From a phage: 64,000 bases of DNA. The DNA is taken from sequence record PX104380.1; one strand, 5' to 3'. Below, piece by piece: positions 3,797 through 56,559 of this stretch (the first letter of the stretch is position 1; each line of letters begins with the position of its first letter). The notes under the pieces were generated by a model. The model ran no database searches and was not told the DNA's origin. It saw nothing but the letters and a program-made list of their open reading frames with translations. A program made the translations under genes and the position numbers.

Positions 3797-3825
3797 AAAA
3801 TAAAAAAGGACTCCCGAAGGAGTCC
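3797..3825 (-). terminator. rho-independent terminator (UUCG-tetraloop hairpin + U-run)
   Basis: Minus sense GGACUCC-UUCG-GGAGUCC followed by UUUUUUAUUUU. Confidence 0.65.
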
Positions 3826-3830
3826 TTAAC

Positions 3831-10099: not shown

Positions 10100-11687
<1,588 letters not shown>

Positions 11688-11694
11688 AATAAAA

Positions 11695-11714
11695 TGGGCC
11701 TTGCGGCCCACTCC
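11695..11714 (-). promoter_or_regulatory. hairpin between Shine-Dalgarno and start codon of denA
   Basis: Minus sense UAA-GGAG-UGGGCC-GCAA-GGCCCA-UUUUAUU-AUG: GNRA-loop hairpin separating GGAG from AUG. Confidence 0.45.
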
Positions 11715-12893
11715 TTAAAAATATTTTTTAAAACTCATCATAACTTTATCATCAACATCATTATCAATCTGTGCAACAAGATAAGATGACAGTTCTACTT
11801 CTTGCGGCGCGGATTGAACATTATCAGAATTAAGGTATTCACGAATCCAAGGATATGGATGTTTAACCGGAGCATCGGTAATTGGACATGGAAGACCGCA
11901 CTGTTTCATACGAGATACAGTTAAGTAATCAATAAAGCTCCACATGCTATTTGTATTTAATCCAGGAACATCGCCATCTTTAAATAAATGAACTGCCCAA
12001 TCTTTTTCTTGGCGGTTAACTTCCATGAAAATATCAACTGCTTCTTGTTCACACTCTTGAGCAATTTTAACCCATTCATCACCATCAGTGCCAAGCTGAA
12101 GTTGACGAATAATATATTGAGTGCCTTTAAGGTGAAGTTGTTCATCACGTGCAATGAACTTCATAATCTTGGCATTACCTTCCATGATTTCCATGTTCTT
12201 ATGGAAGTTAAAGGTACATGCGAAAGATACATAAAAACGAATAGCTTCAAGGGCATTAATAACATGCAGACACAGATAAAGCGACTTCATTAGCTCACGC
12301 TTCCAATATGTCTCATGCTCAATAGCATCTTCAATAACGTCTTCGTCTGCATTAATTTCTTTTTGGTATTCGATATCAGCTTTAGCGTTTTCCCAATAAC
12401 GAGTTTTAATCAGAACGTCATCATAATAACGTCCAATGGATTCAGCGCGTTTCATAATAGCTTCATCTAATACAATCTCATCAAATACCTTTGACGGATC
12501 AGTATAAAGATTTCGCATAATATGAGTGTATGAACGACTGTGAATAGTTTCACTAAAAGTCCATGTAGCAACCCATGTATCAAGACTTGGGTCTGAAATT
12601 AATGACATAAGTACAGCAGATGGCGCACGACCCTGAATGCTATCCAAAAGTGATTGATACTTCAGGTTGTTAGTAAAAATATTTTGCTGGTACTGAGGAA
12701 GCTTATTAAACTGTGCAGCATCCATCATTAAGTTTACTTCTTCAGGACGCCAAAAAAATGATAAAGATTTCTCAATAAGTTCTTCAAATACTCTATGTCG
12801 TTGAATATCATATCGAGCTAAACCCAATCCAGAACCAAAAAACATCGGCTCAGTCAAAATATTAACAGGGGATGTATTAAAAACTGTACTCAT
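11715..12893 (-). CDS. nrdB: ribonucleotide reductase small subunit, 392 aa, uninterrupted
   Basis: Full-length contiguous ORF with RNR R2-like features; position between denA and mobE. Confidence 0.9.
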   Translation of the reverse strand: MSTVFNTSPVNILTEPMFFGSGLGLARYDIQRHRVFEELIEKSLSFFWRPEEVNLMMDAAQFNKLPQYQQNIFTNNLKYQSLLDSIQGRAPSAVLMSLISDPSLDTWVATWTFSETIHSRSYTHIMRNLYTDPSKVFDEIVLDEAIMKRAESIGRYYDDVLIKTRYWENAKADIEYQKEINADEDVIEDAIEHETYWKRELMKSLYLCLHVINALEAIRFYVSFACTFNFHKNMEIMEGNAKIMKFIARDEQLHLKGTQYIIRQLQLGTDGDEWVKIAQECEQEAVDIFMEVNRQEKDWAVHLFKDGDVPGLNTNSMWSFIDYLTVSRMKQCGLPCPITDAPVKHPYPWIREYLNSDNVQSAPQEVELSSYLVAQIDNDVDDKVMMSFKKYF

Positions 12894-13531
12894 TTAGAAT
12901 CCTTAAATTTACATTTATCATAATGCCATCTTAAAGCATTGCCTTTATTAACTTTCTTGCCACAATGCGGACAAGGCGGATACTCTGTACCTTGCTTAGT
13001 TCTCAAAGAAATCAAATCACGGGTTTCTTTAGTATGAGGAACATCTCTTGTCGGAGAAATTGTACCATACATCGGATTAAGCACGCCGACTTTAGCAGCA
13101 GCTATATTCTTTTTAGCTTCTTCGGTTTTAGGTTTTCTCATGCGAGCTAAATGCTCTTTGGTAAATTTCCTTCCTTTAAGAGCTCTACTTATCTTTTCTC
13201 TGGTTTCCATAGAAACTTCACGTCCTATAGCAGCTTCAGATAAACGTCGTCTACCTAATTCGTACAGTTGAGAAGAAATTTTATATGAGCGATTTTTACC
13301 AGTCAAGCACATTAAACCAAAAGCTTTCTTTAATCCTGGGGTGTCATATATTTTACATAAAAGCCAATGAGCTATAAAATGCTCTCTACCTGTTAATTCA
13401 ACTAAATTTTCTTTATCATCAGAACCTCCCATGCATTTAGGGACTATATGATGTGTCTCTTTATATTCGGATAAAGGTTCCCGAGCCTGAGCTCGGGAAA
13501 TTAGGTCATTATAGATTTTTTGATAATTCAT
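12890..13531 (-). CDS. mobE: HNH homing-endonuclease-like protein, 213 aa, between nrdA and nrdB
   Basis: HNH motif ETHHIVPKCMGGSDDKENLVELTGREHFIAHWLL; position matches recalled T4 mobE. Confidence 0.7.
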   Translation of the reverse strand: MNYQKIYNDLISRAQAREPLSEYKETHHIVPKCMGGSDDKENLVELTGREHFIAHWLLCKIYDTPGLKKAFGLMCLTGKNRSYKISSQLYELGRRRLSEAAIGREVSMETREKISRALKGRKFTKEHLARMRKPKTEEAKKNIAAAKVGVLNPMYGTISPTRDVPHTKETRDLISLRTKQGTEYPPCPHCGKKVNKGNALRWHYDKCKFKDSK

Positions 13532-29442: not shown

Positions 29443-33562
<4,120 letters not shown>

Positions 33563-56526: not shown

Positions 56527-56551
56527 GAAAAAAGGACTCCCGAAGGAGTCC
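56527..56551 (-). terminator. rho-independent terminator downstream of soc
   Basis: Same 18-nt hairpin GGACUCCUUCGGGAGUCC as at 3808-3825, followed by UUUUUUCAUUUUA. Confidence 0.65.
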
Positions 56552-56559
56552 TTGAATTA

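Follow-up and report, generated by a model that had tools for sequence, protein, structure and literature searches.

The question raised by the junction of nrdB and denA in the phage sequence record PX104380.1 is how ribosomes reach the start codon of denA, the gene of endonuclease II, when the Shine-Dalgarno sequence (SD) lies far upstream and a hairpin stands between the two. Coordinates refer to the window, the 64-kb stretch (64,000 nucleotides, nt) of this record that was analysed, and the junction is read as RNA from the minus strand. Its order is AAAUAUUUU, UAA, GGAG, UGGGCC, GCAA, GGCCCA, UUUUAUU, AUG, AAA, GAA. The hairpin is 16 nt long, with a GCAA loop and six Watson-Crick pairs, five of them G-C and one U-A. 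The distance from the last G of GGAG to the A of AUG is exactly 23 nt; 27 nt lie between the nrdB stop codon and the denA start codon. A preliminary description had given the same succession of nrdB stop, GGAG, 16-nt GCAA hairpin and UUUUAUU-AUG, which is exact to the base, and a linear SD-AUG spacing of about 23 nt, which the coordinates bear out. Its gene names nrdB and denA also hold: domain PF00268 is found upstream and a GIY-YIG domain downstream, and the denA product is 99% identical to the crystallised endonuclease II of T4 (PDB 2WSH). Gene order and sequence are 96–98% identical to those of T4-group phages, where the genes carry the same names. The equivalent region of T4, proposed there for comparison, has a junction sequence identical to that of the window.

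The start of denA is rather likely to be a split initiation region of the type of T4 gene 38, supplied both by free 30S subunits and by ribosomes arriving at the nrdB stop, with a hairpin that in the T4 group doubles as a leaky attenuator or as a 3' stabiliser. The 30S subunit would bind the SD UAAGGAG, which overlaps the nrdB stop. The GCAA-tetraloop hairpin directly 3' of the SD would stay folded and be accommodated outside the mRNA track. Folded, it would bring the AUG, at 23 linear nt, to within a normal working range of the SD, about 7–9 nt. Since the overlap of SD and nrdB stop releases ribosomes on the site, denA could be fed by de novo initiation as well as by termination-reinitiation. 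Initiation would depend on the hairpin, denA translation would be coupled to that of nrdB, and some transcripts would terminate at the hairpin.

The hairpin is stable. The folding energy of the 33-nt element around it is −16.4 kcal/mol, while 200 dinucleotide shuffles give −6.2 ± 2.4 kcal/mol and none of them folds as well (z = −4.2). In a 91-nt context the hairpin has a z of −2.9; the 16-nt hairpin by itself has −11.6 to −12.2 kcal/mol. For comparison, nrdB-denA junctions were gathered from IMG/VR with a DenA protein search and a DenA alignment, giving 26 distinct sequences from phages whose DenA is 58–100% identical to that of the window. Sources include the T4 group, Mosigvirus KAW3E185, IME281 and VR5, Tegunavirus TG1 and phiR1-RT, Citrobacter phage Moon and Proteus phage phiP4-3. 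All 26 junctions have the same order: a stop codon overlapping an SD-like AAGG(A/G/U), a hairpin of 12–18 nt, a tail of 6–10 nt, and AUG. The hairpin is closed by a tetraloop in 25 of them; the exception, L029, has a 5-nt CUUGA loop. Most of the loops are UUCG; those of the T4 group are GCAA or GUAA. All these tetraloops are unusually stable and are present on the mRNA strand only.

The stem varies by lineage and keeps its pairing (GGGCC/GGCCC, GGGAC/GUCCC, GGGGC/GCCCC, GGGAGAC/GUCUCCC, CAGGGC/GCCCUG and others). Pair types across the alignment are GC, AU, CG, UA and GU, and 87% of the cells are paired. Double changes occupy 28 cells of the 26-junction alignment, compared with 11 ± 2.8 in shuffles, none of 500 reaching as high a value. 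When the 3' partners are shifted by one to three columns, the covariation signal collapses. RNAalifold, given no prior pairs, predicts the same six pairs, four of them with compensatory changes. Because pairing is kept by covariation and RNAalifold agrees independently, the hairpin is a real, selected RNA structure. Restriction of the special tetraloops to the mRNA strand, together with the G.U pairs, points to a function at the RNA level on that strand. The same two features, found on the mRNA strand only, led to rejection of a palindrome acting at the DNA level, for example as a protein-binding site.

The SD is placed upstream of the hairpin in every junction. Its duplex with the anti-SD has −3.9 to −9.3 kcal/mol in all 26, while the tail with the AUG has −0.1 to +2.6 kcal/mol against the anti-SD; the values of the window are given in Table 1. 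By these duplex energies, no competing SD occurs between hairpin and AUG in any of the 26 junctions. The sequence of the tail drifts freely, and the SD never relocates beside the AUG. Measured from AGG, the linear distance to AUG is 23–29 nt (mean 24.7). Folding out the hairpin leaves 6–14 nt (mean 8.9), close to the usual working distance. In the window the linear AGG-to-AUG distance is 25 nt, and closing the hairpin reduces this to an effective 9 nt, or 7 nt when counted from GGAG. The linear distance from AGG to AUG is 23–26 nt in 25 of the 26 junctions and 24 nt in T4 gene 38.

Very few natural examples of split initiation regions are known, and two of these belong to T4 genes. In T4 genes 38 and 25 a hairpin between SD and AUG restores the spacing, from 22 to 5 nt and from 27 to 11 nt, respectively, and mutations that destabilise the hairpin reduce initiation (PMC3014915; PMC7297116). 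The site of gene 38 is traced to Gold 1988, as cited in both reviews; that of gene 25, at the 26-25 junction, to Nivinskas 1999 and to Malys and Nivinskas 2009, reviewed in PMC3014915. The T4 gene 38 sequence reads UAA, GGAG, AGGGGC, UUCG, GCCCUU, CUAAAU, AUG, with 24 nt from AGG to AUG in linear and 8 nt in effective distance. It resembles denA in the stop codon of the upstream gene, which overlaps the SD (UAAGGAG), in the tetraloop hairpin directly after the SD, in the short SD-free A/U spacer before AUG, and in the spacing (24 nt linear and 8 nt closed, against 25 and 9 nt in denA, from AGG to AUG). It differs in the loop, UUCG instead of GCAA, and in being a late gene, downstream of gene 37. 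Its spacer CUAAAU is not U-rich and has a terminator score of −52, against +24.7 for denA, on a d'Aubenton-Carafa-type scale that combines modern energies with the old threshold and serves as a relative measure only. Gene 38 has experimental support reported in reviews; no experiment on the denA site was found, and its membership is judged here from computation.

Gene 25 resembles denA in an SD about 27 nt from the AUG, a hairpin that shortens this distance to about 11 nt, and termination of the ribosomes of the upstream gene at that place. Its arrangement is likewise conserved among close T-even phages. It differs in a much weaker, A/U-rich hairpin (−6.4 kcal/mol), in an SD located inside the coding sequence of gene 26, and in a gene 26 stop codon that overlaps the gene 25 AUG. 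It was verified by reporter fusions and dimethyl sulfate (DMS) probing (PMC3014915).

An annotation-blind scan of T4 (142 kb) for an SD, a stable hairpin, an SD-free tail of 3–12 nt and a start codon with an open reading frame (ORF) of at least 35 codons retains four of 1955 candidate starts: those of genes 25 and 38, that of denA, and one that belongs to no gene. In a similar scan of the window, denA alone combines an SD upstream, and none proximal, with the start of a real gene. A covariance model trained on denA junctions only has T4 gene 38 as its best non-self match, at full length and with 33.4 bits, compared with 35.3 bits for denA. The denA junction combines a distant SD (>15 nt), a stable hairpin filling the gap, the lack of a proximal SD, and conservation with compensatory change. 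On every computable feature it is a member of the split class of T4 genes 38 and 25. It is a third T4 example of a known layout, with the strongest hairpin of the three, and not a new mechanism. No paper naming denA in the split class was found; PMC3014915 and PMC7297116 name genes 38 and 25 only, and the older T4 literature was not covered.

The window has a gene 38 of its own (32752–32788, plus strand), which encodes a T2-type adhesin and has the ordinary order of hairpin (UUCG), GGAGG, 5 nt, AUG. Because the window carries this T2-type gene, the classic gene 38 split site is absent from the phage while the denA site is present. The window's gene 38 was thus unsuitable as an internal control, and T4 gene 38 was used instead.

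Table 1. Features of the nrdB-denA junction and of its neighbourhood in the window.
Feature	Position	Strand	Evidence
nrdB, ribonucleotide reductase small subunit, 392 amino acids (aa)	11715..12893	-	ORF list; PF00268, E = 1.8e-36; annotated nrdB in matching phage records
nrdB stop UAA	11717-11715	-	sequence
SD UAAGGAG, overlapping the nrdB stop; core GGAG 11714-11711	11711..11717	-	sequence; duplex with 16S 3' end −8.7 kcal/mol; SD-like AAGG/AGGAG in 26/26 orthologous junctions
Hairpin UGGGCC-GCAA-GGCCCA; 5' arm 11710-11705, loop 11704-11701, 3' arm 11700-11695	11695..11710	-	folding; covariation; RNAalifold
Spacer UUUUAUU, U-rich, SD-free; terminator-like U-tract; weak G.U/A-U pairing with GGAG possible	11688..11694	-	+2.6 kcal/mol against anti-SD; orthologue tails; folding
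denA, endonuclease II, GIY-YIG, 136 aa; AUG 11687-11685, stop UGA 11279-11277	11277..11687	-	PF01541; PDB 2WSH; orthologue starts
In-frame GUG overlapping the last G of GGAG; denA start in the T4 reference, probably not the real start	11709..11711	-	AF158101 annotation
Candidate MotA-type middle promoter for rnlA; TGCTT 11276-11272, 15 nt, TACTAT 11256-11251	11251..11276	-	pattern scan; consensus match only
RNA ligase 1, rnlA	11224-10100	-	ORF list and domain search
HNH/NUMOD3 mobE-like ORF	13531-12890	-	ORF list and domain search

Several observations weigh against hairpin bridging as the whole explanation. The linear SD-AUG distance is kept as tightly as the effective one (standard deviation 1.1 and 1.6, respectively), and since it is equally conserved, the comparative data do not separate a bridging that is required from a hairpin that is merely tolerated. 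In a 141-nt context, folding predicts GGAG to be partly sequestered (unpaired probability 0.03–0.31) and the AUG to be weakly paired with nrdB codons. The sequestration reflects an extended helix of 10 pairs, −16.4 kcal/mol compared with −12.2 for the core, in which GGAG is paired with the U-run by G.U and A-U pairs. Ribosomes translating nrdB would open the pairs of GGAG and AUG, which would fit coupling. The added role as a terminator has its own difficulty, a terminator-like score that is positive in only 9 of the 26 orthologues. Natural variants show the hairpin to be dispensable in two phages. In Yersinia phage fHe-Yen9-01 (L033, 1490–1510) the denA ATG coincides exactly with a recombination breakpoint; stop and start overlap as ATGA and the hairpin is missing, while its relatives TG1 and phiR1-RT keep it. 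In Pseudomonas phage PspYZU05 (L076, about 1160–1200) stop and start overlap as TAATG, and the hairpin is again missing. In Krischvirus ECD7 another gene precedes denA, and a GAAA hairpin with UUUGUUGU is followed by a canonical SD adjoining the denA AUG, so that a hairpin exists without bridging. These junctions show that translation of denA is as a rule linked to the place where the upstream gene ends, that the hairpin can be done without where stop and start overlap, and that a hairpin recurs ahead of denA even where it bridges nothing. Coupling by overlap (ATGA, TAATG) likewise links denA to nrdB translation, and two relatives use it at the same junction; it differs from the arrangement of the window, which has 27 nt between the codons with SD and hairpin inside. 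A 'ribosome_binding_site' feature in the phiR1-RT record was considered for denA and rejected, as it belongs to the next gene. The preliminary description had proposed a structure-dependent or coupled translation of denA. Its anatomy of a split SD and AUG bridged by a hairpin stands, with the upstream SD, the covariation, the effective spacing of 6–14 nt and the gene 38 layout behind it; the present data do not separate need from tolerance of the hairpin, and the description did not consider the terminator hallmarks of hairpin and UUUUAUU. It is thus partly supported, and on computation is the best-supported reading.

The alternative of greatest weight is that the hairpin is purely transcriptional, a leaky Rho-independent terminator or a stabiliser of the nrdB mRNA 3' end, and that the positions of SD and AUG are incidental. 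On read-through RNA, denA would then be translated by ribosomes from the nrdB stop reinitiating 27 nt downstream, with no bridging. This alternative is doubtful, though not negligible. The G+C-rich stem with UUUUAUU gives the positive score cited above for this phage. The records of phages G29 and KAW3E185 list the hairpin as a putative terminator, one of them naming ARNOLD. In the tails of the orthologues U makes up 63% and A 18%, whereas 130 ordinary T4 spacers have 35% U and 45% A. A comparable short hairpin in T4 mobE terminates 30–50% of transcripts (PMC2790892). The Krischvirus hairpin ahead of a normal SD points in the same direction, as do the two lineages that swap the whole element for a stop/start overlap; since overlapping codons replace the element there, coupling alone can serve denA. 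Against it, the upstream SD is kept in 26 of 26 junctions and is never moved beside the AUG despite the drift of the tail; the terminator score is negative in 17 of the 26; the tails of L037 and L038 (GUAAAGCU and AUAAAGCU) are without a U-run, while hairpin and spacing persist; the tail of the same cassette in T4 gene 38 is clearly not that of a terminator; and only 4 nt separate the nrdB stop from the stem, whose 5' arm would thus be covered by a ribosome terminating there. Judged from their sequence, the hairpin and U-run of T4 and of this phage nevertheless probably form a leaky intrinsic terminator, or a stabiliser of the nrdB mRNA 3' end. Pattern scans detect no promoter-like site between the nrdB start and denA, and any termination must therefore be leaky for endonuclease II to be produced. 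Only read-through transcripts would carry denA, and endonuclease II would be kept low relative to NrdB. Termination is not the conserved function, given a positive score in only a minority of the orthologues, and attenuation is probably a lineage-specific second function of the hairpin. An automatic terminator scan of the window does not list the denA hairpin; this is no evidence against a terminator, because the scan's G.T-tolerant extension of stems is read as absorbing the first four U's, and a separate hairpin scan made in this work gives a 10-pair stem at the junction. Searches for T4 Term-seq or other 3'-end maps returned nothing usable for the denA hairpin. In a T4 omics paper nrdB RNA is early and denA RNA middle, which is weak and indirect information on termination. 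Neither the split site nor a terminator, taken alone, fully explains a U-rich tail together with a fixed linear distance.

Transcription and translation could also be joined more closely, in an attenuator gated by translation and fused to the initiation region, whose hairpin would later bridge SD and AUG and make GGAG resistant to RegB. A ribosome at the nrdB stop, 4 nt from the stem, would block the terminator hairpin behind RNA polymerase, and transcription would enter denA only on nrdB messages under translation. Such a design is unlikely. If true, a single 16-nt hairpin would set the ratio of NrdB to endonuclease II by transcription, translation and RNA stability. It is very improbable that the hairpin mainly shields GGAG from the T4 RegB/S1 endoribonuclease, by which a prereplicative gene would keep a strong GGAG without shut-off, or that it marks a site of RNA processing or stability. 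RegB/S1 requires 11 single-stranded nt, GGAGRAYARAA, and structured GGAG sites, often with UUCG loops, are RegB-resistant in T4 (PMC1702504); the GGAG of the window is followed by UGGGCCG, which lies inside a helix. However, most orthologues have AAGGA or AAGGU instead of GGAG and still keep the hairpin, so that evasion of RegB cannot be the conserved reason, genes 38 and 25 are late genes, and no RegB data for the denA site itself were found. The junction was also considered as a RegB target and rejected, since the 3' consensus is absent and the 7 nt after GGAG are G/C-rich and base-paired. By analogy with the structured T4 sites, the denA GGAG should resist RegB; this resistance is at most a possible side benefit rather than a rival mechanism. 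Equally remote is a start of denA at the in-frame GUG, which would give a protein of 144 aa and put the hairpin inside the coding sequence. Record AF158101.6 annotates denA at 137517–137951, 144 aa, from this GTG (137951 corresponds to 11711 of the window), and RefSeq-derived tables repeat it. The codon lies 3 nt past the nrdB stop in the same frame, a possible site of reinitiation, and the JS98/IME281-like group and L030 have an in-frame ATG or GTG in its place. But the GUG shares the last base of the SD, which leaves a spacing of zero. Only 4 of the 26 junctions, from three lineages, offer an ATG or GTG in frame before the conserved ATG; the other 22 lack it, several having in-frame stops. 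Substitutions between GUG and ATG keep the RNA pairing and not the amino acids, all 18 aligned orthologues begin at the conserved Met, the crystallised endonuclease II begins MKEIATEY after its tag, and other records of the same DNA annotate the ATG. The ATG at 11687 is probably the denA start, according to these comparisons; minor use of GUG during reinitiation may occur. Initiation at a different start codon had been named in the preliminary description as the finding that would count against its reading. Such a codon does stand in the T4 reference record, but comparative evidence disfavours it. The T4 reference denA (GTG, 144 aa) is thus probably wrong, which bears on proteomics and on the re-annotation of hundreds of T4-like genomes.

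With a split initiation region preferred, the 26 covarying variants, together with those in which the hairpin is lacking or precedes the SD, form a system for the tolerance of the 30S subunit to the size and position of a structure. The junction is also of interest for the question of how a nuclease that degrades DNA is held at a low level compared with its abundant upstream neighbour. A rationale for the control of denA in the toxicity of the nuclease is plausible.

The nrdB gene of this phage is uninterrupted (392 aa), unlike that of T4, which is split by a group I intron carrying the defective I-TevIII. Downstream of the junction, the candidate MotA-type box of rnlA overlaps the denA stop codon. 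If this box is real, no gene other than denA would depend on transcription reading through the hairpin.

The mobE-like ORF has a hairpin at 13478–13499 (minus strand), UUCCCGAGC-UCAG-GCUCGGGAA, with 9 bp and a 4-nt loop, about 30 nt downstream of where mobE starts. It is the counterpart of a weak terminator inside mobE whose position in T4 was mapped by experiment (PMC2790892). That terminator (Wilson and Edgell 2009, PMC2790892) shares with the denA hairpin its small size, its G+C-rich stem, a tetraloop, a short U-run and its location in the same nrd cluster. It differs in its position within a coding region and outside an initiation region, in its mapped 3' ends, and in having 9 pairs against 6 in denA.

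The Rfam family RF00558, L20_leader, matches 11680–11806 (minus strand) with 25.8 bits, below the gathering threshold of 58.7 (E = 0.005), and was rejected. The match most likely reflects merely a hairpin followed by a U-run. An identical 22-nt UUCG hairpin, AAGGACUCC-UUCG-GGAGUCCUU, is present at 3806–3827 and at 56532–56553 (minus strand), each copy followed by a U-run, and may be a repeated terminator cassette.

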